A stretch of 64,000 bases of DNA from Candidatus Woesebacteria bacterium RIFCSPLOWO2_01_FULL_39_23 (GCA_001793095.1 MGHG01000005.1:6569-70568), one strand, 5' to 3'. Positions 7,000 through 56,066 are shown, counted from the first letter of the stretch. A program made the numbers and translations. Notes: generated by a model from the letters alone, not told the origin.

Positions 7000-7131
7000 G
7001 AGTGCCAGCGATTGGGATCGACCTACTAATCTTAGCTTTCGGCTTCAGGAACTATTCGTTCACGCCTCTAGCTGCGATTTCAGAAGGGTCAGCCTTTGGC
7101 TGAAACCCTTCACGATTATAAATTTGTCTTG

Positions 7132-7204
7132 TGTCAGCGGGTGGATTCGAACCACCGGCCGCTGCGTTATGAATGCAGTGCTCTAACCACTGAGCTACGC
7201 TGAC
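7132..7204 (-). tRNA. tRNA with CAU anticodon (Met, or Ile2 if lysidinylated); CCA not encoded
   Basis: Minus-strand read GTCAGCG TA GCTC AGTGGTTA GAGC A CTGCA TTCATAA CGCAG CGGCC GGTGG TTCGAAT CCACC CGCTGAC A. The cloverleaf is canonical with a 7-bp acceptor and TTCGAAT T-loop; 31:39 is an A-C mismatch. Confidence 0.8.
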
Positions 7205-7308: not shown

Positions 7309-7992
7309 CTACAATCGTGTTTGCAATCTCAAACCTTCGATATAACCTTGAATTTTCCTTAAAAAATCTTTACTTTTAAGAACTTTAACTCGTAATAAAC
7401 CATAATATTCATCGGGATGATCGTATATTTTTTTCCACTTCACATTCTGAAAATAGGGTTTTCTAAAATTATTAAGTGGAATATTTGTTAAGTCAGACCA
7501 ATGTCTTTCAATCTCTCTGATCCTAGATCGATGACTGTCATTAAGGGTTACACGTACAGTAAGATCGTTATAGTTATAATTAAAACATTTACTTAACCAT
7601 ATCAAAAACAAATTAATCATTGTTGGATCTGAATTAGCAAATCCAGCCTGACTATCTTTTTTAAAACCCTCGCTCCAATAGAGAGCTATTCCCACCAAAA
7701 ACAGCTCCCTTTTAGACAATAAGCCAACTTCGTTAATCCCCTTTCGTTTTAACTCCTCAACTTTCTTATTAGTTTGTAATTTTATATGATTTATATAATC
7801 TAAACGTTTACCATATAGAGGATCTCTTGCATGACTTTCTAAAACTTTGTATTGCTCTTGGGTTAGAATAATATCCCTTGTCCAAAGACTAACAGAACTT
7901 GTTGATACATTTAATTTTTTTGCTATATATTTAATGCTTAACCCTTTTTTTCTTAAATTTATAGCTTCAATTTTTTTCTGAGATTTTGCCAT
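7309..7992 (-). CDS. HTH-domain protein with LAGLIDADG-like motif (homing-endonuclease-like), paralog 1
   Basis: 227 aa; N-terminal HTH (LRKKGLSIKYIAKKLNVSTSSVSLWTRDI). Central LVGIALYWSEG resembles a single LAGLIDADG motif, followed by the conserved GFANSDP box. Paralogous to 55051..55770. Confidence 0.5.
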   Translation of the reverse strand: MAKSQKKIEAINLRKKGLSIKYIAKKLNVSTSSVSLWTRDIILTQEQYKVLESHARDPLYGKRLDYINHIKLQTNKKVEELKRKGINEVGLLSKRELFLVGIALYWSEGFKKDSQAGFANSDPTMINLFLIWLSKCFNYNYNDLTVRVTLNDSHRSRIREIERHWSDLTNIPLNNFRKPYFQNVKWKKIYDHPDEYYGLLRVKVLKSKDFLRKIQGYIEGLRLQTRL

Positions 7993-8089: not shown

Positions 8090-8424
8090 GCGGGGTAGTG
8101 TACGGCTGCACGGAAGGCTCGAAGTAATTGGGCCCTCAGATAAGAAATTATTATGAGTGAATTTGGTCACGGTACCATGTAGTACGTGATCGTGCGCTAA
8201 ATAGTGCGCGACTATATCGGTGAAACCTAAGTGGTAAGTATAAGCGGAATCATAAGGTAACGCCGAGGAAAGATCCTGAATAAAATTGAAGGAAATCCGT
8301 AGAGACTATACGCCAAATACCTAAACTATATTTAGAATGGTAAAGACATAGTCCGATACTCCGGGAAACCGGAGAAATTTTTAAGCATAATCTTCCAGGC
8401 TGGGTTCGACTCCCAGCCCCGCAA
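8090..8424 (+). ncRNA. ssrA: tmRNA (SsrA)
   Basis: 5' UGCGGGGU pairs with 3' ...GCCCCGCA across about 335 nt. The 3' end is a tRNA-like T-arm, CTGGG TTCGACT CCCAG, plus acceptor strand, discriminator A, and no encoded CCA. The 5' region GGCUCGAAG resembles the conserved tmRNA GGAUUCGACG box. No D-arm is present. Tag reading frame not resolved. Confidence 0.6.
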
Positions 8425-10880: not shown

Positions 10881-10955
10881 TGGTGGAGCCGCTTGGAGTC
10901 GGACCAAGTACATCGATCTTATAAGGATCGCGTTCTGCCGGTGAACTACGGCTCC
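10881..10955 (-). tRNA. tRNA with UAU anticodon (putative tRNA-Ile decoding AUA), CCA encoded
   Basis: Minus strand: GGAGCCG TA GTTC ACCGGCA GAAC G CGATC CTTATAA GATCG ATGTA CTTGG TCCGACT CCAAG CGGCTCC A CCA. All stems are Watson-Crick, giving a 72 nt body plus CCA. Confidence 0.7.
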
Positions 10956-11768: not shown

Positions 11769-14090
11769 TCAGAGCTTTGCTCTTCTTGATATTTCCGCTT
11801 CAACCAAACGCAGATCCCGTCCATAATTAAGCTTGCTCATTTCCTTTATTATGTCAGCAATTTTCGGATTATCCTTCTTCTTTTCTTTAGCAAGATCTTT
11901 AGTTACATCCATCGAAAAAGGCGGAACTGGCTCATTGTTGACCGTTGTTTTAATATAAGCATGAAACTTTTCGATATTAAGAAGATCGTCTTCTCCAAAA
12001 ACAGGGCTATACTCATGAGCCAGATAATTTGCGTCAGTTACGCCAACTCTGAAGGAAATAATAGTACCGACATTCCCGAACACCGCATTTTTCACCTCTT
12101 CTTCAACCTGACCTATAAATTGGTTGGCAACGGTTAAGTTCAGTCTGTATTTTCTTGCCTCAGAAAGAATTTGGGCAAAGTCAGGAGTAGCAAAGTTCTG
12201 GAACTCATCGACATATAAATAAAAATCGCGCCTCTGATCCTCAGGAACATCTGCCCGACTCATGGCCGCCATCAGAATCCTGGGAACCAATATGAGTCCT
12301 AAGAAACTCGAGTTTTCCTCCCCTATTTCACCTTTGGATAAATTGATGAAAAGAATTTTACCCTTATCCATTACGTCTCTGAAAGAAAATGAAGATTGGG
12401 ATTGGCCTATGATATTTCTGATCATCCTATTTGTTACAAAGCGGCCGAATTTCGAAACAATATAATCCAAAACTTCAGATTTATGGAAGTCTGCCGTTTG
12501 AGCAATTTGATCAGTCCAGTACCGTCTGATAATAGGGTCTGTTACCTTAGGCAACAGCTCCTGTACATAGCGCGCATCAGTGAGGGCTCTCATAACCTCA
12601 ACGAACGTTGCTCCCTCATCGCACATAACAGTCAACATTGCATTTCTGACAGCGTGCTCAAAGCGAGGACCGACAATACCGGTTTTATAGGGATCGAAAA
12701 GTTTATACATCATATTAATAACTGCCGTTGCTGCAAAATGCTTTTGATCTTCGGTCCTTGCCTCTAAAAGATTAAGTCCCATCGGGCGTTCGGTGTCGGC
12801 GGGATTGAAGTAAATTACGTCTTCAGCACGCTCGGGCGGAATTCTTTTTAGCAGATCCTCAATTGCATCACCGTGCGGATCCATGTAGCACAGTCCCTTC
12901 CCCTCATTAATATCCTGCATAATCATTTGCTTCTCCAGCTCGGTTTTACCGGTACCCGTCTTACCGATAATATAAATATGTCTTCTTCTGTCATCTTCCC
13001 GTATATAAACCGGCCTCCTGACGCCTCTATAGGTACTCATACCAAAATAAAGACCTTCTGACGGAATTTCCTGAGGCGCGGGTGCCGTTTTTGCGTATAC
13101 CCAATGAATATGGGGTGTTGTTATCTGTTTATTTGGGAAATGGTAAATTGTTGCAAGCTCCTCAGAATTCAAGATCGTTCGTCTATTTCCCCAAAGGTGA
13201 AACATCGGTTGATAACGGTAAATAAAATCTTCGATGAAAGCACCTTTTTGGCGGATAGTTCGACTCTTGAGATTATTTAAATCACTCGAGAGCTGGGCAA
13301 AAGTGCTGCTAATATTTGCTAAATGCGCCTTAGCTGAATTTTCATCCCTTGAAACAACAACTACCCTAACTGATGTTTCAAACCCAACCTTACTGACTTT
13401 GTTTTCGATTGCCTCTAGCGTCTTTGCAGGAACTGAAAATTTCGCTTTTTGTGGGTCCGACTCCTGTTTTTTAATATTTGATACGAAAGTTGACCCGGAT
13501 TTTTGCCATAACAAATCAACCGGTGTCAGTAGTATCTGAATTGCGGCAGACTCACCTTCACCCATTTTCGCCAATGCCGAAGTAAGCGAAGAAAGCGGAT
13601 CGGTAGCCAACTCTCTAAAAGTTTTCAAGGGGTAATAATTATCTTTCGCCAGTTGAAAAGCTTTATAAGCAACCTTCCCGTCTTCGGTAAAAATATTATA
13701 TTCCTGAACTTCGACAATATCGGCGTCTGTATAGGCTCCGTGAATCTGTTTCTCGACCAAATCCTGAAATTCTTTTGGTGTCCATATATAGAATCTGATA
13801 TCTTCTTTCTTAGCTACAATCTCAAAAGAAACATTCGGCTGGAATGAATACTTCTGCTTCCAACCTCCCTTTTTAATCGCGAAGAGGGAAGCAAACAGTT
13901 GTTCCATTGCATCGATTTTGACTTCGTTATTTTTATGGACAGCAACCTGAAGTAAAACGGAATCAACCGATCTTTCCTCCCTTCCTCTATAACGAAACTT
14001 CGTGTAAGCATAGATTGAAATCGCGGCAATTATAAAAATAAAAATCGATACAAAAAACAAAATTACAAAAATAAGATTAACGTCAATCAT
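11769..14090 (-). CDS. membrane-anchored VirD4/TraG/TraD-like type IV coupling protein ATPase (DUF87-type)
   Basis: 773 aa; N-terminal TM helix; Walker A IIGKTGTGKTE and Walker B LYVDEFQNF; TraG/TraD-like C-terminal region. Confidence 0.6.
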   Translation of the reverse strand: MIDVNLIFVILFFVSIFIFIIAAISIYAYTKFRYRGREERSVDSVLLQVAVHKNNEVKIDAMEQLFASLFAIKKGGWKQKYSFQPNVSFEIVAKKEDIRFYIWTPKEFQDLVEKQIHGAYTDADIVEVQEYNIFTEDGKVAYKAFQLAKDNYYPLKTFRELATDPLSSLTSALAKMGEGESAAIQILLTPVDLLWQKSGSTFVSNIKKQESDPQKAKFSVPAKTLEAIENKVSKVGFETSVRVVVVSRDENSAKAHLANISSTFAQLSSDLNNLKSRTIRQKGAFIEDFIYRYQPMFHLWGNRRTILNSEELATIYHFPNKQITTPHIHWVYAKTAPAPQEIPSEGLYFGMSTYRGVRRPVYIREDDRRRHIYIIGKTGTGKTELEKQMIMQDINEGKGLCYMDPHGDAIEDLLKRIPPERAEDVIYFNPADTERPMGLNLLEARTEDQKHFAATAVINMMYKLFDPYKTGIVGPRFEHAVRNAMLTVMCDEGATFVEVMRALTDARYVQELLPKVTDPIIRRYWTDQIAQTADFHKSEVLDYIVSKFGRFVTNRMIRNIIGQSQSSFSFRDVMDKGKILFINLSKGEIGEENSSFLGLILVPRILMAAMSRADVPEDQRRDFYLYVDEFQNFATPDFAQILSEARKYRLNLTVANQFIGQVEEEVKNAVFGNVGTIISFRVGVTDANYLAHEYSPVFGEDDLLNIEKFHAYIKTTVNNEPVPPFSMDVTKDLAKEKKKDNPKIADIIKEMSKLNYGRDLRLVEAEISRRAKL

Positions 14091-14424
14091 TCATGCTTCC
14101 TCCACTTTTAATCATCCGCCAGCCAAAATGAACTGCCTTTTGAATAAGTCTAATCCAAAATACTGCAAACCATGTCAAGGCATCATCGGCAGATCCTTTA
14201 GTCCAGGCAGTAAGTTGTGTTTGAGATGCCGGAATTTGAATAGTAACCTGCTGGGTTTTCGGTGTTCGAATTAAGGGTTTCCCCGAGTCATCGGTTACTT
14301 GCGCAGTAAAGTCATCACGCCGTGTTTTTACACCAAGCCCTTGTTCTACCTCCGGCGGAATCTCTGTGGGTCGCTCCGTTACTAATTCCTCCTTGGATGT
14401 AACACCCCGTTCAACATCTGCCAT
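14083..14424 (-). CDS. small membrane protein, coupled to the T4CP-like gene
   Basis: 113 aa; C-terminal hydrophobic helix (LTWFAVFWIRLIQKAVHFGW); 8-nt overlap with the upstream ATPase gene start. Confidence 0.4.
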   Translation of the reverse strand: MADVERGVTSKEELVTERPTEIPPEVEQGLGVKTRRDDFTAQVTDDSGKPLIRTPKTQQVTIQIPASQTQLTAWTKGSADDALTWFAVFWIRLIQKAVHFGWRMIKSGGSMND

Positions 14425-14496: not shown

Positions 14497-15045
14497 CTAT
14501 CTCTTTTTCACAATCCAAATTATTTCCTTTCCACCTTCTTGTAAATTAGCCCACCTAGCAAAAGTGTAAAGAGAATCTGATAAACGGTTAAGATAAGTTA
14601 ATATGGAAGGTTTTACCTTTCCAGACTCGGAATAAGCTACTACCTCCCTTTCCGCTCGTCTAGATAATGCTCTGGCAAATTGAAACAGTGATGCGGTTTT
14701 GGATCCGCCCGGGAGTATAAAATTTGTTAATGGTGGAATTTCTGTGTCAAGCAGATCTATAAGCTTCTCTAAATGAGTTGTTTGGCTTTTAGAAAATTTA
14801 AGATCGGATCCAGCAAGAATAGAGCCTATATTTAAAAGGTTGATCTGCATTCTTTCGATTTCTTTTTTCACCAGAGGCAAACCCTCACTAAAAGCGGAAA
14901 CGATTCCCAAATAACTATTCAATTCGTCAACGGCTCCGATTGCAGAAATAAGAGGCGCGGATTTTGGAAGTCTTACGGATTTCCCCTCAACTTTTCTATA
15001 TATTCCCGTCTCCCCCCGATCCCCTTTCTTTGTATAAATGGACAT
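14497..15045 (-). CDS. ATP:cob(I)alamin adenosyltransferase, PduO type
   Basis: 182 aa; N-terminal IYTKKGDRGETG signature of PduO/MMAB adenosyltransferases. Confidence 0.8.
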   Translation of the reverse strand: MSIYTKKGDRGETGIYRKVEGKSVRLPKSAPLISAIGAVDELNSYLGIVSAFSEGLPLVKKEIERMQINLLNIGSILAGSDLKFSKSQTTHLEKLIDLLDTEIPPLTNFILPGGSKTASLFQFARALSRRAEREVVAYSESGKVKPSILTYLNRLSDSLYTFARWANLQEGGKEIIWIVKKR

Positions 15046-15068
15046 AGGTTAAATTGTTAACAGTATAT

Positions 15069-15443
15069 TTAATCAATTTTGGGTTCGGAGTGGTGAAATT
15101 CTCGATAAATAACTTCAGCATTTCTTTTCGACTTAATCGAACCAGCTACAATCTCACCTAATACTTGCGCGTTTTCTATTTCTGTCCAGGAAAAACCCAA
15201 CTCTCGTTTCTTATGAGACATATCAAACAACTTCGAAGAATCTTCTGTTATTCTAGGGTCTGAATTTTTATAGCCTTTTACTTGCATAAAGAATTTTAAA
15301 TAATCAAGCAGCTCACGATGTATCCAACCTTTACTACTTTCCACAATATCTTTCCTGCCATTTGGAGTTACCACAACGACTTCTACCATATCTTCGCGGC
15401 GTCTCTCTATCTTTTGATGATCAAATCCGGTTTCAACTCCCAT
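15069..15443 (-). CDS. hypothetical protein
   Basis: 124-aa ORF between pduO and nrdJ; no motif recognised. Confidence 0.35.
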   Translation of the reverse strand: MGVETGFDHQKIERRREDMVEVVVVTPNGRKDIVESSKGWIHRELLDYLKFFMQVKGYKNSDPRITEDSSKLFDMSHKKRELGFSWTEIENAQVLGEIVAGSIKSKRNAEVIYREFHHSEPKID

Positions 15444-15809
15444 TTCATTTACCTCGATATATCTTATAGCTCTGAGGTTAGAAAATTGTATAACAAATCA
15501 TTAATTGAGTCAAAAGAGGTTCCTCACTCCGTTACTACCACACCCTGTAGCGTGGTAGTAAGAATTATGTGTTATCTTTATCAATTTGAAGTTCCTTTAG
15601 ACGTGGCCGAAGCCATTGTGTGGTCAAGCGTCCCCGCTAGGCAGGGCATTTCCAGAAGTTCTGGTGGTTCTGCCAGCATAACAGCTCCAGTCACATCTAA
15701 AGACCCTCAATGCAAGATATTAAGCGATCCGATATTGAGATATCAGGAGAAAATCCAATCCAATTCTCTTAATATCTTTATATCCCAATATCCTAATATC
15801 TCCGTATTG

Positions 15810-17966
15810 TTAAAGTTCGCAGGTCGAATACCCGCATTTTTTACACTTAAGACATTTTCTGTCTCTAATCAGTTTACCACTACAGTTAGGACAAATATTT
15901 ACTCCGCCGGCTGGCGGATTTTTTCTTCCCCCGAATTCAAACACTTGATCGTTCTTTGTTCTATCGCGATAAACAGTCAGTCCTTTACAACCAAGCTTCC
16001 AGGCTAGCACATAAGCTTCCTGAATATCTTTAGGAGTTGCCGAAGCGGGCATATTTATCGTTTTTGTAATCGCGTTATCTGTCCACCTCTGGAAAGCTGC
16101 CTGCATTTTTATATGATCCCTCCAATTTATATCGTGAGCCACTTTGAAAATCCGCCTAATATCGGCGGGAATTTCTTGTATATTTTGGATACTCCCATGA
16201 TGATCGATAACCATTTGTATTAATGCATCCGAATATATTCCCCGCTCTTGTAGCTTCTTCACAAAAAGAGGCACCACAGTTCGAAGATGCATGCCATCAA
16301 GTACATTTTGTTCATAGGCAAGTGCAAAATAGGGTTCAATTCCAAAAGAAGTTTCGCAGATAACGGCATTTCCGGAGCTTGGAGGAAAAGTAAGGAGAGC
16401 AACATTTCTGGGTTTTTTCGCTCTTTTTGCCCATATTGAGTCTTTGACTAAAGGAAACGGACCTTTTTCTTTAGCAAGCTTGCATGAAGCTTCAAATGCT
16501 GCCTCGTACATCGTTTTTGTTACATGCTCAGCTAAGTCAAAAGCTTCCTTGGAGTCATATGGAATTCCAAGTATCGTAAGAGCTTCAGCCCATCCGACAC
16601 AGCCAATTCCTATTCTTCTGTGCGCTCTCACCGATTCAGTGACCTCCGTAACCGGAAACCATGAGGCGTCAATCACGTTATCCATTAATCTCGTGGCAAT
16701 TACCATAACGCTTGTCAATTTGTCAAAATCGAAGGTACGAGCTTCAGGATTGACAAACTTAACGAAATTAACATACCCCAAATTACATGATTCATAAGGA
16801 TACTGGGGAATCTCACCGCACACATTAGTAGCTAATATCGGACCTTTTTTGGCCAATAACGGATTCCCGAATTGCGTGCCTTTATTAATTGCTGAAAGAT
16901 TAAGTATTCCCGGATCTCCTGTTTGCCAAGCCATCGTTGCCATGAGCTCCAAAATCGAGCTTGCCTTGACAGTATTTACTACCTCGTTAGTTCTTGGGTT
17001 AACTAGTTTCCAGTCTTTGCCCTTCAATGCAGCTTGCATAAAAGCATCGGTAATACCGACCGAGATATTGGTTTTACTTAAATAGCCGTCATTTTGTTTT
17101 GCTGCAATAAAATTAAAGATATCCGCATGGTCAGCGTTGAGAACCGCCATATTGCCGGATTCATATCTGCCCTCCTGACGGAAAAGCGACGTCATCAAGT
17201 CAAACATCTCGATTATCTTAACCGGTCCTGCTGCAAGATCCGGAATACCCCCTACAACATCCCCCTCAGGTCTGACATTAGAAAAGTTGTAGCCGCATCC
17301 TCCGCCATGTTTTTTAATAAGAGTCGATTGATGGAGAATCTTAAAAATAAAATTAATATCATCTTCCACCGGCCAGACAAAACAATTCCCGAGCTGAGCG
17401 GCCTTCTTGCCTGCATTTGCCAGAGGCCTGGTTCCCGGGTGGAATTCAAAATTTATCATGACATCATAAAATTTCTTGTACCACATATCCTGATTTTTCT
17501 TACCCTTTTCAACACTTGCTAAAAATCTGGCAACTCTGTCAAACATTCCGCCGGGAGTTTCGATAATTTCTCCCTTTTCATTTCTACTGAGGTATCTTTG
17601 CTTTAATATGTATAACGTATTATAGGAAAGCCCAATATCGTCTTTTACTCCAAGAGATTCCTTATCCTGCCGGGCGTGTTTCTTATTCTCACGAAAGCGG
17701 ATAAACTCCTTGGCAGTTTTTGCGTGACCTCGTTCAATCAAGACTTTTTCTACAAGCTCGCCAATTTCAGTCGTTTTAATACTTTCACCATTCGGATATC
17801 TTATCTCTAAAGTCTCCTTTACCAATTCTCCCAACTCGAGTGCCAAGTTTTTATCATTACCGCCTACTTTTTGCGCAGCCATCCAAATACTTTCCGTGAT
17901 CTTCTCAACTGAAAACATTTCCTTCTGACCGGAAAGTTTAATTACCTTTTTTGCAGTTTGCGTCAT
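15810..17966 (-). CDS. nrdJ: ribonucleoside reductase class II (adenosylcobalamin-dependent) with N-terminal ATP-cone and C-terminal zinc ribbon
   Basis: ATP-cone region VIKLSGQKEMFSVEKI; active-site NVCGEIPQYPYESCNLG (NxCGE family motif); C-terminal CPNCSGK...CLKCKKCGYSTC. The ORF is listed to 18125, but M54 at 17966 avoids overlap with the upstream nrdJ. Confidence 0.85.
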   Translation of the reverse strand: MTQTAKKVIKLSGQKEMFSVEKITESIWMAAQKVGGNDKNLALELGELVKETLEIRYPNGESIKTTEIGELVEKVLIERGHAKTAKEFIRFRENKKHARQDKESLGVKDDIGLSYNTLYILKQRYLSRNEKGEIIETPGGMFDRVARFLASVEKGKKNQDMWYKKFYDVMINFEFHPGTRPLANAGKKAAQLGNCFVWPVEDDINFIFKILHQSTLIKKHGGGCGYNFSNVRPEGDVVGGIPDLAAGPVKIIEMFDLMTSLFRQEGRYESGNMAVLNADHADIFNFIAAKQNDGYLSKTNISVGITDAFMQAALKGKDWKLVNPRTNEVVNTVKASSILELMATMAWQTGDPGILNLSAINKGTQFGNPLLAKKGPILATNVCGEIPQYPYESCNLGYVNFVKFVNPEARTFDFDKLTSVMVIATRLMDNVIDASWFPVTEVTESVRAHRRIGIGCVGWAEALTILGIPYDSKEAFDLAEHVTKTMYEAAFEASCKLAKEKGPFPLVKDSIWAKRAKKPRNVALLTFPPSSGNAVICETSFGIEPYFALAYEQNVLDGMHLRTVVPLFVKKLQERGIYSDALIQMVIDHHGSIQNIQEIPADIRRIFKVAHDINWRDHIKMQAAFQRWTDNAITKTINMPASATPKDIQEAYVLAWKLGCKGLTVYRDRTKNDQVFEFGGRKNPPAGGVNICPNCSGKLIRDRKCLKCKKCGYSTCEL

Positions 17967-17973
17967 GATGGTA

Positions 17974-20562
17974 TTAACATTCCGAGTATCCACATGCTTG
18001 GCATTTGGAGCAGCCTTCCTCATAAACCAATGCACTTGCACCGCAGGATGGGCAGATATCTCCAACACCCTTAATATCCGCAAGGCTAAGTTGGTTTGCA
18101 GACATATTTTCTTGCACTTCTGCAACTCCCCCAGGATGAAGACTAAAGTTCGTTACCCCATTCGTGTTTATTCCTCCGTTCCCGTTTGTAACTAAGTAAC
18201 TCTTACCATCCCCCTCCGTTTTGTGATTATTGTCAATTTCATCCGGTTTTACATTTTCGTAACCCTCCCGTCCCTTGAGAAAGCCATTAATTCTGAAGCC
18301 AAAATGAAGCGAAAGTGCCATTGCGATAGCATCCGGGAGTGACAATACTTTATTAGGCCCAAAACCCACGGACCGTCTCCCTCCAATACCGGCTAGCTGG
18401 AGAGCAATCTCTTTTGCCCGATCAACCGGCCTAAGATCACTTCTAAAACGTAGTGCCGTTGATATTGTTCTGCCTAAGGCTTCCGACATTGCTGCAACAT
18501 CGCTTCCGGCTTTTCCTACGTTGACAAAAAGTTCTAAGGGTTCCTGCTTCTCGTCTTGATTTATTGTCACAAAAGCAGTTCCAACAGGCGTATTAAGCCG
18601 ATAAGTTGCACCTGTAACCTTAAATGGCCTACTAATAGTTGACTCTTTAGGTAATTCCTTCTTCTTTTTGTCATTAATTCCTAAATTAAGAACTTGAGCG
18701 GCTTTGCAGCCATCTCTGAAAACAGTTACTCCCTTACAATCCGTCTCCCAAGCCAATAGATATGCCTCTTTTATATCCGATACATTGGTTTCATTTCTCA
18801 TATTAATAGTCTTACTCACGGCATTTTCCGTATATTTCTGGAATGCTGCCTGGTGCCTGATATGCCAATCGTGGTTAATTTCGTGGGCAGTACCAAAGAC
18901 TCTCTTGACGTCATCCGGCACCCCGTCAACTTCTCTTACAACTCCATGTTCGCCGATTTTTCTTTTTAACTCATCCGTCCAAAAGCCTCTTCTTTTCGCT
19001 ACCTCTTCAAACTTTGGATTTACAAACGTCAGGGTTCTATCCAGACTTTTATCTTTAACAATATGCTGGTATGCAATTGCAAATAGGGGTTCGATGCCGC
19101 TACTCGCTCCTGCCAGTATTGAAATCGAACCTGTCGGGGCAATAGTTGTAACGGTCGAATTTCTTCGCGGTTTTCCATTTTTATAAATACTAACTCCCCA
19201 GAGCGGAAATGGCCCGCGGTCCTTTGCCAACTCGTGAGTGGCGGCAACAGACTCTGTCTCAATAACTTTCATAATTTTTTCCCCAAGCGTTAAGGCTTCT
19301 TCCGAATCATAAGGAATCCCCAACTCAACCAGTAAATCCGCCCATCCCCCAACTCCAAGACCAATACGTCTAATAGCCAAAGATGTCTGGCGAATCTCTT
19401 TCAAGGGATACGGATTCATTTCAATTACGTCATCAAGAAATCGTGTTGAGACTCTCGCAACTTCTTTCAACTTTTCCCAATCAATAGACTTTTCGCCGTT
19501 ATTATCAACTACAAACTTCTGAAGAAAAATACTACCTAAATTACATGAATCATACGGATAAAGAGGTTGCTCACCACAGGGGTTGGTTGACTCAACCGGA
19601 CCGAGTGGCGGAACCGGATTTGCTGAACCTTTATTTATCCTATCCAGAAAAATTAATCCAGGATCGCCGGTTTTCCAAGCTCCTTCGGCGATTTCATCCC
19701 AAACCTTTCGAGCAGAGAGCTTTCCGACAACTCGTAAGCTTACACCTTTGTCATCCTTTTTGGGTGCAATAAGGTCGTATTCACTATCGTTTTTGAGAGC
19801 CTCCATAAAGGCATCAGTAATTGCAACAGATATATTGAAATTGGTAATTCCTCCTTCTTCCTTACAATGAATGAATTCAAGAATATCCGGATGATCAACT
19901 CTTAATATTCCCATATTTGCCCCACGCCTTTTACCACCCTGTTTTATTTCGTTTGTCGCAGCGTCAAATATCTTCATAAAAGACACGGGGCCTGAGGCAA
20001 TTCCTCGGCTTGACCGCACTATTTCTCCATGCGGCCGTAATCGACTGAAAGCAAAACCCGTTCCCCCTCCCGTTTGGTGTATCAAAGCCTGATATTTAAT
20101 AGCGTCAAAAATACCAACTAGCGAATCTTCAACAGGAAGAACAAAACAAGCAGAATATTGTAGACCGTTACCCGTTCCCGCATTCATCAGGGTCGGAGAA
20201 TTCGGGAGAAATTCATGAGTTACCAGAAGATTGTAAAACCTGCGTGCAGTTGTTAAAACCTCACTTTTTGTTTTACCCCAACAAACCTCAGCCGATGCGA
20301 TATCCCAAGCAACCCGCCAACATAACTCTTCGGGAGTTTCGATAACTTGTCCATCCTCATTCCTGCGCAGATATCTCTCACTGAGAACCCTTAAAGACTG
20401 CTCAGTCCATTCTCCCTTGGGCAAATCGGAAGGTACATCAGGCCTTTTTCCAAGTTTTTTATGCAATTTCTCGACGAGTTCCCCGTACGTAGGAAAGTTA
20501 AGATGCTCTAAACTAAGTTCCGAGTGGCCGTTGCTTTTAATTTTTTTAATTTTTTTGGACAT
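17974..20562 (-). CDS. nrdJ: ribonucleoside reductase class II, second paralog, without ATP-cone, with long C-terminal extension
   Basis: 862 aa; TNPCGEQPLYPYDSCNLGS active-site motif; C-terminal CPSCGAS...CSKCQACGYSEC zinc ribbon; no intein-like insertion seen. Confidence 0.85.
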   Translation of the reverse strand: MSKKIKKIKSNGHSELSLEHLNFPTYGELVEKLHKKLGKRPDVPSDLPKGEWTEQSLRVLSERYLRRNEDGQVIETPEELCWRVAWDIASAEVCWGKTKSEVLTTARRFYNLLVTHEFLPNSPTLMNAGTGNGLQYSACFVLPVEDSLVGIFDAIKYQALIHQTGGGTGFAFSRLRPHGEIVRSSRGIASGPVSFMKIFDAATNEIKQGGKRRGANMGILRVDHPDILEFIHCKEEGGITNFNISVAITDAFMEALKNDSEYDLIAPKKDDKGVSLRVVGKLSARKVWDEIAEGAWKTGDPGLIFLDRINKGSANPVPPLGPVESTNPCGEQPLYPYDSCNLGSIFLQKFVVDNNGEKSIDWEKLKEVARVSTRFLDDVIEMNPYPLKEIRQTSLAIRRIGLGVGGWADLLVELGIPYDSEEALTLGEKIMKVIETESVAATHELAKDRGPFPLWGVSIYKNGKPRRNSTVTTIAPTGSISILAGASSGIEPLFAIAYQHIVKDKSLDRTLTFVNPKFEEVAKRRGFWTDELKRKIGEHGVVREVDGVPDDVKRVFGTAHEINHDWHIRHQAAFQKYTENAVSKTINMRNETNVSDIKEAYLLAWETDCKGVTVFRDGCKAAQVLNLGINDKKKKELPKESTISRPFKVTGATYRLNTPVGTAFVTINQDEKQEPLELFVNVGKAGSDVAAMSEALGRTISTALRFRSDLRPVDRAKEIALQLAGIGGRRSVGFGPNKVLSLPDAIAMALSLHFGFRINGFLKGREGYENVKPDEIDNNHKTEGDGKSYLVTNGNGGINTNGVTNFSLHPGGVAEVQENMSANQLSLADIKGVGDICPSCGASALVYEEGCSKCQACGYSEC

Positions 20563-20569
20563 ATTATTC

Positions 20570-21010
20570 TTATTCTTTTATCGCCTTAGCGAAATCTTCT
20601 AAATCTTCAAACTGCAAATAGACACTTGCAAATCTAAGCCAAGCTACTTTGTCTATCCTTCTAAGCCTCTTTAATACTGCCTTCCCTATCGATTTACTGC
20701 TGACCTCTTCTTTCTGGCTTCTTAGCATCTCTCTTTCGACACTCTCGACCAAATCGTTAATAAAATCCATTGAAATTGGTCTTTTTTCGACTGCTCTAAG
20801 AACCCCTCTTTTTACTTTCTCTTTGTCAAACGACTCTCTTCTGCCGTCTTTTTTTATTACCCAGAGAGCGGACCCTCCAACTTTTTCGTAAGTTGTAAAA
20901 CGTTTTTTACACTTAAGACATTCTCGCCTTCTTCTTATTGATTTCCCCTCGTCTACGGTTCTTGATTCGAGTACTTGAGTATCCCTGGCTGCACAAAACG
21001 GACATTTCAT
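20570..21010 (-). CDS. nrdR: transcriptional repressor NrdR
   Basis: MKCPFCAARDTQVLESR...RRRRECLKCKKRFTTYE zinc ribbon plus ATP-cone. The ORF track starts at 21037, but the conserved MKCPFC start at 21010 is more likely. Its stop lies 8 nt from the nrdJ start. Confidence 0.85.
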   Translation of the reverse strand: MKCPFCAARDTQVLESRTVDEGKSIRRRRECLKCKKRFTTYEKVGGSALWVIKKDGRRESFDKEKVKRGVLRAVEKRPISMDFINDLVESVEREMLRSQKEEVSSKSIGKAVLKRLRRIDKVAWLRFASVYLQFEDLEDFAKAIKE

Positions 21011-21033
21011 ATTTTCATAGATGAAAACAAATA

Positions 21034-21110
21034 TCACTACCCCTAGTGTCTAGAGACTATTTAACCACCAGATATTGAATAGTCAACTAGTAATATATAT
21101 GTCAAAAAAT
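21034..21110 (-). promoter_or_regulatory. putative nrdR promoter with NrdR-box-like palindrome
   Basis: Minus strand: TTGACT, 17 nt, then TAAATA, followed by ACACTAGGGGTAGTGA (arms CACTA/TAGTG as in the NrdR-box consensus, with a GGGG centre). Confidence 0.35.
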
Positions 21111-21231: not shown

Positions 21232-21864
21232 TTATTGCCAATTAAAGGGATTATCCGGGGGGGCGATTCCCTTTTCCAGAAGTGCGTTACGTGACCTCTC
21301 GTATACTTTTGTTGAAATGTTCTGGGTAACTTTTAACCCCGCAATTGCATCTTCCGGTGCCGTTGCCAGAATTGCGTCAATCACCTCATAATGCTTAAGG
21401 GATGCATTCGCGAGTCTTTTCACAAGTTCTGTAGTATCTACTCCCTCTTTCCTGATTTTCTCCTCTTCGATTGATGCTTCTTCCATGTACTTCTCGCCTT
21501 TTGTCAAAGTTGAATATGCAACTTCGGGTTTTCCCTTATCGAACAGGATCTTGCTTGCCCCCAACCTTTTATCGGAAAACAAAAGAAGAAGCTCTATTTT
21601 TTTTGTTTTATTCGTCGTCAATAATAACCAAACCCTGTCCCTAGCAGCTTTAATTCTCCAAAGCGGACTATCAGGCAAAACCTTCCCGGGGTAGGCTAAG
21701 TAATAAATAATTGAATAAGACTTATTACCTGATACCATATTCAGATCTAAACCTTTTCCCTGGCCAAATTCATACTTAACAGAGGCTGTACGAAGTATTG
21801 ATATAAATAGTATCCCAAAAGCAAAAAAAAGCGTTGCTACAACAAAAATAATCTTGCGCCACAT
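21232..21864 (-). CDS. hypothetical membrane-anchored protein
   Basis: 210 aa; N-terminal TM helix. Confidence 0.4.
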   Translation of the reverse strand: MWRKIIFVVATLFFAFGILFISILRTASVKYEFGQGKGLDLNMVSGNKSYSIIYYLAYPGKVLPDSPLWRIKAARDRVWLLLTTNKTKKIELLLLFSDKRLGASKILFDKGKPEVAYSTLTKGEKYMEEASIEEEKIRKEGVDTTELVKRLANASLKHYEVIDAILATAPEDAIAGLKVTQNISTKVYERSRNALLEKGIAPPDNPFNWQ

Positions 21865-22037: not shown

Positions 22038-22685
22038 TTATCTGAAAAGAATTACTGGCCATTCCCAGAGAACATGCAGGAGAATTGATGAGGCAATATT
22101 TTTTGTTCTCGCAAAGACAAAAGCGGATCCGACTCCGAAGAGAAAAATCAAACCCAGATAAATTGCAGCCGAAGGTAAGGCTAGTTTCCACAAAAATACC
22201 GCTACCGGGACATGCATGGCAGCCCAAATCAAGCTGGTTACACAATTAGCCGCCCACTCCTTCTTCAAGATAGTTAACAGCCTGTTGAAGATATAACCCC
22301 TGAAAGTCGTCTCCTCAACCGTCGCCGTTATGCAAGAAATAGCCAGACCGTAAAAAAACGGATAATTTCCGATATTTGCGGTAAAGTCAAAGCCTCGATA
22401 TTTAATGAAACTCACAATTAACCCGGCAATTCCGAAACCAGCCCCAAGAGCTAATGCAAAATAAAGCGAAGGAAATAAATTTTTAAAAGTTACACCCAGT
22501 GAAGAAACTGAAGCATGTTCTCGCTTTAGTAAATATATGATTGGAGCCAGCCAGAGAATCGGTTTTACTAACAACTCGTCAATTGGCTCCGGTAAGTTAA
22601 AGTTTGAGCGATAGACGCCCCAAACGATTAATAAATAAACCGAAAATAAAATTACATTCTTAATGAGAGGTTTCTTTTTAGACAT
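22038..22685 (-). CDS. CPBP family intramembrane metalloprotease (CAAX protease/Abi)
   Basis: 215 aa, polytopic; EETTFRGYIF (EExxxR), AAMHVPVA and SSILLHVLWEW (HxxxN/W) motifs. Confidence 0.7.
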   Translation of the reverse strand: MSKKKPLIKNVILFSVYLLIVWGVYRSNFNLPEPIDELLVKPILWLAPIIYLLKREHASVSSLGVTFKNLFPSLYFALALGAGFGIAGLIVSFIKYRGFDFTANIGNYPFFYGLAISCITATVEETTFRGYIFNRLLTILKKEWAANCVTSLIWAAMHVPVAVFLWKLALPSAAIYLGLIFLFGVGSAFVFARTKNIASSILLHVLWEWPVILFR

Positions 22686-22697
22686 AAGGAAATTTTA

Positions 22698-23255
22698 CTA
22701 TGTTCTTTGCACTTTGTTGCTTGTCCTATTTATCTTACATTCCCGATAAGCGAAATCGATAGACGCAATTACCATATTTATTTTTTCCTCCGCCTCAGGA
22801 AGGCTGATCGCGTTTTTTTCATTTGGGAACCAATGAAAAAGGAGATTCCGGCACTCTTTCCAGGTTTGCCACAGATTATCTGCTAATACTTTATCTTTAG
22901 AAAATTCCACAATTTTGTCATAAACACTTTCTCGATCCCTATATTCTTTCTCAAGCGATGGATTAAGAGCCTTCCCTACTCTAAAATGTTTACCATAATA
23001 ATCATCCTCTCTAATAAAATCTAAATCTAAAAACAATGTTTTTAAAAAGCCTTCATATGCTTTTGCCGCCGGAAAAACCGCGAAAGCATAGTCATGGAAT
23101 TTAGTCCTTTTAATAGAACCCCTACCATAGCTTCGGCTTAGTTCGCTTTCCCATCTTCTGGCTGTAGTAATTAGAAGCACTGATTGCGTAAGAAGCTCTC
23201 GCAGGTCCTCGTGAATATAGCCCCACCAAGGTTTCGTTTCCAAATTATTCTCCAT
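22698..23255 (-). CDS. hypothetical protein
   Basis: 185-aa ORF upstream of the CPBP protease gene, same strand. Confidence 0.35.
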   Translation of the reverse strand: MENNLETKPWWGYIHEDLRELLTQSVLLITTARRWESELSRSYGRGSIKRTKFHDYAFAVFPAAKAYEGFLKTLFLDLDFIREDDYYGKHFRVGKALNPSLEKEYRDRESVYDKIVEFSKDKVLADNLWQTWKECRNLLFHWFPNEKNAISLPEAEEKINMVIASIDFAYRECKINRTSNKVQRT

Positions 23256-55050: not shown

Positions 55051-55770
55051 ATGTTCGTATATTACAGTTATTATATGGGTTACTTTGGTAAATTAGATGA
55101 AAGAATCAAAGTACAAGAACTTCGTAGGAAGGGGTATTCTTACAATGAGATACTTCAATATGTAACAGTTTCTAAAGATACTCTGAGCAGATGGTGCAGT
55201 AATATTCCCCTATCTGTCGAACAACAAAACCGTTTATTAAAAAACAAATCTTTAGGACAACGTAAGGGATCGCTAATAGCTGCAGAGAAAAAAAGGGAAG
55301 AAAGGATATTTAGAACAAATGCAATTATGAATAAAGCCAAAAAGGAAGTGGGGAAACTGAACAAAAGAGAAAGATTTATAGCTGGTTTAGCTTACTATTC
55401 AGCAGAAGGCGATAAATCTGAGAGCAAAAGTGGTTTTGCCAATTCTGACCCTAAAGTAATATGTTTCATGATTAATTGGTTCAAGGAGTTCTGTAATATC
55501 CCTGAGTCAAAATTTCGTGGAGCTTTGTGGTTACATGAAGGTTTAAATGACTATCAAGCGAGAAGGTTCTGGTCAAAAATCACAGGAATACCACTAGAAC
55601 AATTTTATAAGACTTACATTGCAAAAAACAAACAAGACAGTAAAAAGGTCAGAAAAAATCTACATCTATATGGGGTATTTTCTATAAGGTTTTGCGATGT
55701 AAACATACAAAGGAAAATATTAGGATGGATTTCAGGTTTATTTGATGCTAAAATCGGTACTGCTCTTTAA
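55051..55770 (+). CDS. HTH-domain protein with LAGLIDADG-like motif (homing-endonuclease-like), paralog 2
   Basis: 239 aa; N-terminal HTH LRRKGYSYNEILQYVTVSKDTLSRWCSNI; IAGLAYYSAEGDKSE LAGLIDADG-like box; GFANSDP box shared with 7309..7992. Ends 3 nt before the intron-containing tRNA. Confidence 0.5.
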   Translation: MFVYYSYYMGYFGKLDERIKVQELRRKGYSYNEILQYVTVSKDTLSRWCSNIPLSVEQQNRLLKNKSLGQRKGSLIAAEKKREERIFRTNAIMNKAKKEVGKLNKRERFIAGLAYYSAEGDKSESKSGFANSDPKVICFMINWFKEFCNIPESKFRGALWLHEGLNDYQARRFWSKITGIPLEQFYKTYIAKNKQDSKKVRKNLHLYGVFSIRFCDVNIQRKILGWISGLFDAKIGTAL

Positions 55771-55773
55771 TAT

Positions 55774-56066
55774 TCCCCGGTAGCTCAGCGGTAGAGCGGA
55801 TTCCTGTGATTTCTTAGCAGCTCTTAAGGGAAACTTTAAGATGAAAACTGGGAGAATTGCGTGAAGCCCCTATCTTCGGATGAGGTAACCCGCAGCCGAT
55901 CCTTTGTTAAAGTGGAAAGCACTGCTTTAGCTTAGGCAGGTTCAGAAACTATGCACCCAGACTCTAATCCAAATCGGCATGAGTAAGATATAGTTCCGCG
56001 TCCCATGGAAACATGGGGGTACGAGTAAGAATAAGGTCGTAGGTTCGAATCCTACCCGGGGAGCCA
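55774..56066 (+). tRNA. tRNA-Asn(GUU) interrupted by a 218-nt group I intron between positions 35 and 36 (intron 55808..56025); CCA encoded
   Basis: Exon 1 is TCCCCGG TA GCTC AGCGGTA GAGC G GATTC CUGU. Exon 2 is UAA GAATA AGGTC GTAGG TTCGAAT CCTAC CCGGGGA G CCA. The acceptor is a perfect 7 bp. The intron has group I core elements: P-like GGGAAACTTTAAGATG, Q-like AATTGCGTGAAG, R-like GTTCAGAAACTATG and S-like AAGATATAGTTCC. An IGS GCAG can pair with exon CUGU, and the intron ends in G. Confidence 0.8.
55808..56025 (+). mobile_element. group I self-splicing intron (tRNA anticodon-loop type, no internal ORF)
   Basis: Conserved P/Q/R/S core sequences are listed above. The 218-nt length is in the range of Azoarcus/Anabaena tRNA introns. 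The ORFs listed on the opposite strand inside it are spurious. Confidence 0.75.

Follow-up and report, generated by a model that had tools for sequence, protein, structure and literature searches.

Why does a bacterium with a genome of roughly 1 Mb maintain two B12-dependent ribonucleotide reductases side by side in one operon? The question is posed by a stretch of 64,000 nucleotides from Candidatus Woesebacteria bacterium RIFCSPLOWO2_01_FULL_39_23 (GCA_001793095.1 MGHG01000005.1:6569-70568), called the window in the following, in which positions 14,497 to 21,110 hold the gene for the regulator NrdR, two genes for class II ribonucleotide reductases (RNRs), nrdJ1 and nrdJ2, and, behind one further small gene, pduO for a cobalamin adenosyltransferase. 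Genomes of this size in the lineage spend 5-9 kb on two to four tandem B12-dependent reductases together with the cobalamin adenosyltransferase, and the lineage thereby provides a natural setting in which to address why, as Schell et al. (PMC8365446) had asked, cells keep enzymes reducing ribonucleoside diphosphates (NDPs) next to enzymes reducing ribonucleoside triphosphates (NTPs). An initial annotation, made from the nucleotide sequence, had regarded the arrangement as unusual and the two reductases as differently regulated. We arrive at another reading, to which we assign a probability of about 0.65: the locus would be the standard deoxyribonucleotide-supply operon of Candidatus Woesebacteria (Patescibacteria; Candidate Phyla Radiation, CPR), encoding two separate, co-expressed reductases of which NrdJ1 would act on NDPs and NrdJ2 likely on NTPs. 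Part of this is already known, namely the nrdR-nrdJ operon and the co-residence of NDP- and NTP-reducing class II enzymes, and the genes are correctly named in NCBI, where a Candidatus Woesebacteria protein 100% identical to NrdJ1 already bears the name adenosylcobalamin-dependent reductase. Specific to the lineage are the phosphate site and the degenerate ATP-cone of NrdJ2, a partner slot prone to turnover and an RNA element embedded in the operon.

Two complete class II reductases

All genes of the operon are encoded on the minus strand. The first reductase gene, nrdJ1 (17974-20562), encodes 862 aa with the domains Ribonuc_red_lgN, Ribonuc_red_lgC and TSCPD and, in agreement with the initial annotation, no ATP-cone was found in it by the Pfam scan. 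The second gene, nrdJ2 (15810-17966), encodes an ATP-cone followed by lgN and lgC; the cone had been recognized before, and of the two lengths offered for the protein, 718 aa from the ATG at 17966 and 771 aa from a TTG, only the former agrees with the orthologues, which measure 707-745 aa. NrdJ1 reaches 699 bits against TIGR02504 (NrdJ_Z; cut-off 400) and 998 bits against NF006417 (cut-off 961), and it stays with 331 bits below the cut-off of 341 bits of the class I model TIGR02506 (NrdE_NrdA). NrdJ2 obtains 570 bits against TIGR02504 and 329 bits against the class I model, so that both proteins score as NrdJ equivalogs and neither as a class I enzyme; with 637 bits against NF006417, NrdJ2 falls outside that sub-family. 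The two proteins share 39% identity over 623 residues, and for both the best match among solved structures (PDB) is the NrdJ of Thermotoga maritima.

The alignment to this characterized dimeric enzyme matched all catalytic residues in both copies. The active site consists of CFV in strand beta-A, TNPCGE and SCNL in strand beta-F in NrdJ1, and of CFV, TNVCGE and SCNL in NrdJ2, aligned to C134, N320-C322-E324 and C333 of T. maritima; neither copy has lost a catalytic cysteine, one of the possibilities that the initial annotation had wished to see checked. The same three elements, Cys-betaA, N-x-C-G-E and Cys-betaF, are present in every other paralogue type that we encountered. Among orthologues the finger loop is found in 120 of 120 NrdJ2 and 117 of 120 NrdJ1 sequences, three of which carry inteins, and Cys-betaA in all of them. 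Some NrdJ1 orthologues (P0124, P0147 and P0225) reach about 1240 aa and contain intein and LAGLIDADG domains (PF14890, PF14528); the NrdJ1 of the window is intein-free. Both proteins contain a single aromatic residue in TV[FY]RD, compared with the Tyr-Tyr of class I, and both are predicted to use adenosylcobalamin.

The N-x-C-G-E motif had been read correctly in both copies, and the C-terminal ribbons of four cysteines had not: both tails hold six cysteines in the pattern CxxC-(9-10)-CxxCxxC-xxxx-C, kept in 120 of 120 NrdJ1 and 116 of 120 NrdJ2 orthologues. A Zn finger of four cysteines plus a redox-active cysteine pair forms the tail module of most dimeric class II RNRs, and the TSCPD domain corresponds to the IscU-like domain (PMC9669993). 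By their cysteine pattern, the tails of NrdJ1 and NrdJ2 are assigned to this published module. In NrdJ1 the tail is preceded by an IscU-like/TSCPD domain without cysteines and by a low-complexity linker. The insertion domain of monomer-type enzymes (RNR-II insertion domain, PF21995) was not found in either protein in the Pfam scan, and by domain content both are predicted to be dimeric-type class II enzymes. Across the same loci, the orthologues of NrdJ2 are 66-80% and those of NrdJ1 59-71% identical, which argues for purifying selection on both genes.

To which substrate the two enzymes are directed can be approached through the phosphate-binding loops. For the apical loop, Schell et al. (2021, J Biol Chem, PMC8365446) established a rule backed by mutants and enzyme assays, by which P-N-S-P stands for NDP reduction and P-[A/S/G]-G-R for NTP reduction; enzymes with the minor motifs P-S-M-R and P-Q-G-S-P were assayed too and count among the NTP reducers. 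In the same study, several nrdJ genes were present in 1108 of 24,059 GTDB genomes, 760 of which (69%) mixed predicted NDP and NTP types, a mixture proposed to be selectively advantageous (PMC8365446). The apical loop of NrdJ1 reads F-L-P-N-S-P-T-L (FLPNSPTLMNAG) and aligns to IPNSPTLFNAG of T. maritima; P-N-S-P is found in 50 of 54 NrdJ1 orthologues, and specificity loop 2 is canonical (KQGGKRRGANM). Judged by these motifs, NrdJ1 is of the canonical NDP reductase type. NrdJ2 departs from this at three sites. Its apical loop, F-H-P-G-T-R-P-L, lacks P-N-S-P and has the arginine of the NTP reducers with threonine at the position of their glycine, and within the family the motif is PGTR in 62, PGSR in 19, PGGR in one and SGGR in two sequences. 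Two further changes are invariant in the family: P-P-S-S-G-N-A takes the place of A-P-T-G-S-I-S in the distal phosphate loop, and in loop 2 K-Q-G-x-R-R-R-G-A-x-M has given way to [RK]-Q-[EQD]-G-[RK]-Y-E-S-G-N-M. These signatures are kept in 120 orthologues and in relatives of the Dojkabacteria type. NTPs are the most likely substrates of NrdJ2, which could possibly also accept both levels of phosphorylation.

Several points weigh against a simple assignment of NrdJ2 to the NTP reducers. P-G-[T/S]-R and PPSSGNA are not among the motifs listed by Schell et al. (PNSP, P[ASG]GR, PSMR, PQGSP; PMC8365446), and the closest construct assayed there, P-A-S-R (G68S), lost most of its activity with GTP and gained activity with GDP in traces (PMC8365446). 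Moreover, in loci in which NrdJ2 is accompanied by a monomeric-type PSMR enzyme (L011, L018, L063, L086) or by a PAGR enzyme (L001, L009, L079, L091), both genes would be NTP-like by motif, and hence a simple NDP/NTP split fails to explain every variant of the operon. The proposal of the initial annotation that NDP versus NTP reduction might separate the two enzymes thus holds for the NDP motif of NrdJ1 and the arginine-type motif of NrdJ2, and it is less certain for the substrate level of NrdJ2, as P-G-T-R lies outside the listed motifs. The difference in phosphate level nevertheless appears to be the best-supported functional difference between NrdJ1 and NrdJ2, and it would fit the published general pattern. 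No description of the NrdJ2 phosphate-loop variant, nor of the RNA element treated below, was found in the literature. This phosphate site is unlike any characterized motif, and the lineage thus also supplies a variant from nature on which the two-residue specificity rule can be checked.

The ATP-cone of NrdJ2 is recognized by Pfam with 49 bits, and its canonical Lys-Arg ([VI]xKRxG) reads K-L-S-G in the window. The position of the arginine, which aligns to the K-R of solved ATP-cones, is variable (L, A, I, V, N, E and others) in every Woesebacteria NrdJ2 orthologue with a readable motif (89 of 120); the enzyme of L011 and stand-alone relatives of the NrdJ2 type (J2d) retain KRDG or KRNG. The fold of the cone is kept, canonical control by (d)ATP has probably been lost and inhibition by dATP is doubtful, as far as the motif permits a prediction. 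One review names the Thermoplasma acidophilum enzyme as the sole cone-bearing class II enzyme to have been studied to date, and its activity was not seen to be regulated; a cone without regulatory function is thus plausible in NrdJ2 as well.

Regulation and gene order

The gene nrdR (20570-21010) encodes 146 aa with a Zn-ribbon containing RRRR (CPFC...RRRR...CLKC) and an ATP-cone with the canonical K-K-D-G-R (KKDGRRE). The previous description as Zn ribbon plus ATP cone was borne out by PF22811 (Zn_ribbon_NrdR), PF03477 and TIGR00244 (194 bits, cut-off 125). Its start is placed at the ATG at 21010 and not at the GTG at 21037 given by the gene lister, as the orthologues have 146-147 aa and the Zn-ribbon opens at MKCPFC; identity with the gene in the equivalent position of related loci amounts to 61-86%. 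The spacers between the nrdR stop and the nrdJ1 ATG (20563-20569) and between the nrdJ1 stop and the nrdJ2 ATG (17967-17973, taccatc) are both 7 nt long, and therefore the close adjacency noted initially stands and the figure of about 8 nt does not.

NrdR boxes were sought by scoring all pairs of 16-mers spaced 30-33 bp apart against the consensus over the whole window. The top-scoring tandem pair lies directly 5' of nrdR on the minus strand, with a proximal candidate box at 21034-21049 (ACACTAGGGGTAGTGA), beginning 39 nt 5' of the nrdR ATG, and a distal one at 21065-21080 (ATTCAATATCTGGTGG) at a spacing of 31 bp. Each box matches the consensus at 11 of 16 positions including C4 and G13, equivalent pairs at 31-33 bp occur in orthologous promoters, and the core CACTA-N4-TAGTG is also found 5' of nrdR in six related loci (L003, L004, L005, L007, L008, L009). 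Published NrdR sites are separated by about three helical turns and overlap the promoter, each box contains conserved G:C positions at a distance of nine bases, and autoregulation is described as occurring "often" (PMC9110341). The predicted boxes of the window have the form of the NrdR regulon, two 16-bp palindromic sites about 31-32 bp apart on a promoter. The distal box is situated in the spacer between a -35-like TTGACT (21086-21081) and a -10-like TTAAAT (21064-21059), where we infer the nrdR promoter. These hexamers were read by eye; that the consensus promoter scan did not list the pair speaks against this placement. The same scan for promoters and terminators returned fewer promoter-like sites than shuffled sequences and no convincing terminator.

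With a shared promoter and 7-nt spacers, NrdJ1 and NrdJ2 would be co-expressed and not differentially transcribed. The designation as differently regulated enzymes could not be upheld for this reason, and the cone of NrdJ2, lacking the canonical arginine, gives it no support either. The following course of events can be proposed. One promoter under two NrdR boxes would drive nrdR-nrdJ1-nrdJ2, and NrdR would repress its own gene and both reductases together, by analogy with the nrdRJ operon of Streptomyces. Owing to the 7-nt spacers, NrdJ1 and NrdJ2 would be made together and would not serve as alternatives. Both would be catalytically competent, dimeric-type, adenosylcobalamin-dependent and most likely separate enzymes, of which NrdJ1 would reduce NDPs and NrdJ2, a distinct and slowly evolving subfamily of the CPR, most likely NTPs or possibly both. 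PduO, usually encoded directly downstream, would adenosylate salvaged cobalamin for both. In this scheme repression by NrdR, phosphate specificity, the use of adenosylcobalamin and the independence of the two enzymes are deduced from sequence comparison.

The pduO gene (14497-15045) encodes 182 aa of a PduO-type ATP:cob(I)alamin adenosyltransferase (PF01923; TIGR00636 with 153 bits, cut-off 108, covering profile positions 1-170 of 171) and is indeed located two genes downstream of the reductases. The intervening orf124 (15069-15443) encodes a hypothetical protein without a match in Pfam, NCBIfam or PHROG and without a homologue among the 97 related loci described below, in which pduO mostly starts a few bases past nrdJ2. 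It looks like a genome-specific insertion; the spacer between nrdJ2 and orf124 measures 366 nt, and a promoter-like TTGACT-17-TACAAT precedes orf124 (15513-15485). The conservation of pduO fits the need to adenosylate salvaged cobalamin. No NrdB-like protein and no catalytic subunit of class I or class III was found among the window's open reading frames (ORFs) of at least 400 aa, eight in number, which comprise the two nrdJ genes, a DUF8128 NTPase, two penicillin-binding proteins, a beta-lactamase-like protein, a DUF3131 protein and one unassigned ORF.

How far the arrangement extends was determined by fetching 97 related loci (numbered with the prefix L) and typing their ORFs against reference paralogues; layouts were counted over loci that are not duplicates and extend far enough on the flanks. 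Woesebacteria supply over 100 orthologues of NrdJ2 at 69-80% identity, and the standard gene order is DUF5667 - nrdR - nrdJ1 - nrdJ2 - pduO - orf113 - DUF8128. Another class II RNR gene is located directly 5' of the nrdJ2 orthologue in 66 of 67 loci, nrdR precedes the first reductase in 47 of 52, and pduO follows nrdJ2 within 3 kb in 61 of 67, often 4-15 nt past its stop. The tandem is a rule of the lineage and not an oddity of one genome. The view that the arrangement is unusual has accordingly been abandoned, also in light of the Streptomyces nrdRJ operon, in which nrdR is co-transcribed with nrdJ (PMC9110341), and of the 760 mixed genomes among the 1108 with several nrdJ genes (PMC8365446). 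Nothing specific on NrdJ in CPR, Woesebacteria or Patescibacteria was found in the literature.

The slot upstream of nrdJ2 holds one to three class II genes of at least five types. NrdJ1 is the partner in 54 loci. The four loci with a PAGR enzyme mentioned above represent a three-reductase variant, J1'-J3-J2 (e.g., L001:2949-10154 and L009:4231-11142), in which J1' combines PAGR with a TSCPD tail and is only 35-38% identical to the NrdJ1 of the window, while nrdR and NrdJ2 are 72-86% identical; this suggests, as judged from the identities, that the first slot has been replaced. J3 has an ATP-cone and an apical loop [VC]-[TS]-[RTG]-[SK] corresponding to no known motif. The monomeric-type PSMR partner carries the RNR-II insertion domain together with an ATP-cone, PF21995 being detected in the partner gene of L011. 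Two loci (L070:915-9133, L078:940-9133) contain four tandem class II genes with an inverted pduO in front and no nrdR; their apical motifs are SGTP, VTRS, PGGS and PGTR, two of them unlike any published type, and one of the genes has VNQCGE and CTL where others have TNPCGE and CNL. Finally, genes of the NrdJ2 type stand alone within +/-7-9 kb in Dojkabacteria and relatives (54% identity; L012, L013, L015, L016, L089, L096), which argues that the NrdJ2 type is self-sufficient. NrdJ2 is thus the constant and slowly evolving member and the upstream slot the variable one.

Some irregularities of individual loci were recorded in addition. In L015, a separate ORF of 178 aa (12620-13156), corresponding to the C-terminal end of an RNR barrel only, lies 1.4 kb downstream of the gene of the NrdJ2 type. 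In the metagenome loci L053, L082, L086 and L091 the nrdJ2 or monomeric-type gene is divided into two ORFs, which could reflect frameshifts, pseudogenes or assembly errors. Genes for MazG, NUDIX, DUF4430 and DUF6580 proteins are inserted in L001 between nrdJ2 and the conserved downstream genes. In the window these downstream genes are orf113 and the gene for a DUF8128/TraG-like NTPase (11769-14424, minus strand), syntenic markers behind pduO that are conserved in relatives. On the 5' side of nrdR, genes on the minus strand encode a DUF5667 protein (21232-21864), an Rce1-like CAAX protease (22038-22685) and a protein with weak similarity to HEPN/RNase-LS (22698-23255), and this trio accompanies the operon in synteny in almost every related locus.

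A structured RNA candidate and other features of the window

About 100 nt past the nrdJ2 stop, at 15579-15708 on the minus strand, the operon contains a candidate structured RNA. Two of its sequence blocks, CTGGAGCTGTTATGCTGGC and GACCACACAATGGCTTCGG, occur once each in the window, and GACCACACAATGGCTTCGG recurs exactly in 12 loci, every time on the operon strand. A covariance model gives 95.5 bits for the window copy, the sole sense-strand copy in the window, and detects one sense-strand copy in each of 52 loci and none in the stand-alone loci of the NrdJ2 type. The position of the element is not uniform. In 38 loci it is embedded in nrdJ1, in the linker that joins the IscU-like domain to the Zn finger, and 79-253 nt separate its end from the stop; in 12 loci, as in the window, it is located behind nrdJ2, often 1-13 nt past the stop; and in two loci it lies between J3 and nrdJ2 (example copies of the element are L022:6646-6776, L005:7218-7345 and L091:6848-6972). 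The copies embedded in nrdJ1 are open and are read in one and the same frame in 17 of 17 cases with both blocks anchored, yielding ..AGAVMxA...D[HP]T[MT]AS.., whereas in non-coding copies (window, L005, L018, L091) stops or frame shifts break this "peptide" and the blocks and the pairing persist. The NrdJ1 of the window is devoid of this peptide.

In the consensus fold, the two ends of the element close a rod of about 32 bp, which carries two apical hairpins whose sequences vary and yet pair. The rod contains an invariant irregular duplex, GCUGUUAUG..GGC opposite G.CC.CACAAUGGC, with conserved G-U pairs, an A/C mismatch and a bulged A. In a structure-independent MAFFT alignment double changes occur at 14 of 32 pairs. 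Over 35 sequences 94.8% of the cells are paired; shuffling lowers this figure to 84.2% (0/500) and sliding the partner to 33-44%. In this set 19 pairs are doubly changed. The minimum free energy of the window copy is -54 kcal/mol (z = -6.1). Rfam returned nothing relevant, either for the whole window at the gathering threshold or, at the looser limits of E<=1 and E<=10, for operon and element; it likewise found no cobalamin riboswitch in the operon, and an exact-pattern scan of viral contigs for the element gave no match.

Other explanations of the element were considered. A dispersed repeat or miniature inverted-repeat transposable element is ruled out for this window by its single copy in 64 kb and one copy per locus. 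A spliced intron is ruled out as well, since the nrdJ1-embedded copies that were checked stay open and in one frame. That merely a peptide is conserved is disfavoured by the copies behind nrdJ2, which contain stops or frame breaks and still keep the blocks and the pairing. We conclude that 15579-15708 is a real, selected RNA structure tied to the operon, although it retains the status of a candidate. The conserved irregular helix and the unconserved junction would be suggestive of a binding or processing site for a protein rather than of a pocket for a small molecule, which is a guess. The element may constitute a new cis-acting RNA, for instance an operator binding a protein or a ligand, or a processing site, setting the relative output of the reductases and PduO. 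A conserved hairpin that tolerates both coding and non-coding settings is uncommon, and it is the least expected item of the operon.

The remaining RNA-related features of the window are of a different kind. Two Rfam matches to group I introns barely exceed the gathering score (8110-8375 and 55798-56018, both plus strand), and each adjoins one of two related ORFs (7309-7992, minus strand, and 55051-55770, plus strand; 227 and 239 aa) sharing ..SEG.K.S..GFANSDP.., which might, as a guess, be homing-endonuclease genes. No rRNA gene is located in the 64-kb window. ARAGORN lists a tRNA-Ile with anticodon TAT (10881-10955, minus strand), and a tRNA-Met is located at 7131-7204.

Alternative readings and known systems

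The features that set NrdJ2 apart, its unusual loop 2, phosphate loops and ATP-cone, might suggest a pseudo-enzyme among the two copies; alternatively, a frameshift could have broken a single gene into the two ORFs. Both ideas are highly improbable: the catalytic Cys, Asn and Glu and the redox tail are present in both proteins, and the odd motifs of NrdJ2 are invariant across its family, which indicates constraint and not decay. Each protein possesses a complete N-terminal all-alpha domain, a barrel and a tail, and having N- and C-terminal modules of their own at only 39% identity, they are the products of two genes and not of one frameshifted gene, in line with the initial annotation, which had treated them as separate. 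Redundancy of the second gene, which would then have arisen by recent duplication or horizontal transfer and be heading for loss without a distinct role, might be suspected since RNR genes are transferred often and redundancy within one class has been so explained (PMC3019208), and the upstream slot with its at least five partner types does turn over. We consider this unlikely. An identity of only 39% between NrdJ1 and NrdJ2 points to an ancient split, the pair is retained by dozens of species, between which the orthologues are down to 59-80% identity, and up to four tandem RNR genes are maintained in genomes of roughly 1 Mb (L070, L078). The families differ, moreover, at exactly the substrate-phosphate and specificity loops.

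The 7-nt spacers and the near-universal adjacency would also be compatible with an obligate NrdJ1-NrdJ2 heterodimer, produced at 1:1 by translational coupling, in which the cone-bearing subunit acts as regulatory or catalytic partner; both proteins are of the dimeric type without the RNR-II insertion domain, and only one has an ATP-cone. Against this rather improbable arrangement stands the inconstancy of the upstream partner, which can be NrdJ1, J1', J3, a monomeric-type enzyme or two to three of these genes, and with such different partners a conserved interface with NrdJ2 is unlikely. The NrdJ2 type occurs alone in loci of the Dojkabacteria type, and each protein has a complete active site and its own reductant tail. 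A specialization in something other than phosphate level, such as corrinoid forms, reductants (IscU-like versus short tail) or effector logic, could account for the replacement of the Arg-rich KQGxRRRGA by [RK]Q[EQD]G[RK]YESGN in loop 2, for the different tails, for the clustering of cobalamin-handling genes with the operon, pduO throughout and the putative DUF4430 and DUF6580 genes in L001, and for the PSMR+PGTR and PAGR+PGTR operons that the NDP/NTP split leaves unexplained. We regard it as quite unlikely too, given that the apical phosphate loop is the sole experimentally validated determinant that separates NrdJ1 from NrdJ2. The reading as two co-expressed reductases, one for NDPs and one likely for NTPs, is preferred over these four. 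An extension of it is more tentative: the NrdJ2 family may accept both phosphorylation levels or a different one, and that NrdJ2 is a natural NTP/NDP intermediate and, at the same time, the RNA element a new cis-acting RNA is conceivable though doubtful as a whole. If true, an intermediate specificity would explain why NrdJ2 has a variable partner in Woesebacteria and yet stands alone in Dojkabacteria.

Among known systems, the Streptomyces nrdRJ operon is the closest in regulation. It shares nrdR as the leading gene of a unit with nrdJ, a pair of palindromic boxes overlapping the promoter at a distance of about three helical turns, and an NrdR with a Zn-ribbon containing RRRR and an ATP-cone. 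The Woesebacteria operon differs in having two, elsewhere up to four, nrdJ genes and pduO, and in its predicted boxes with CACTA-N4-TAGTG cores, of which the proximal one has a G-rich and not an A/T centre. With the mixed NDP/NTP genomes it shares a P-N-S-P enzyme alongside an arginine-type enzyme, although that study covers neither operon structure nor the Woesebacteria lineage (PMC8365446). In comparison with the dimeric, NDP-reducing NrdJ of T. maritima (PDB 1XJE/1XJK), NrdJ1 has the same PNSP, loop 2 pattern and APTGSIS distal loop and adds an IscU-like/TSCPD domain and a Zn finger, whereas NrdJ2 adds an ATP-cone and has changed loop 2, apical loop and distal loop. NrdJa and NrdJb of Pseudomonas aeruginosa are likewise encoded by two adjacent genes named nrdJ in one operon; there, however, they form one split enzyme in which NrdJb consists of the IscU-like and Zn-finger parts only, while two complete enzymes are encoded here. 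The class II enzyme of T. acidophilum is a further known system with an ATP-cone; in Woesebacteria the NrdJ2 cone has specifically lost the Arg of K-R-x-G, which relatives of the Dojkabacteria type keep.

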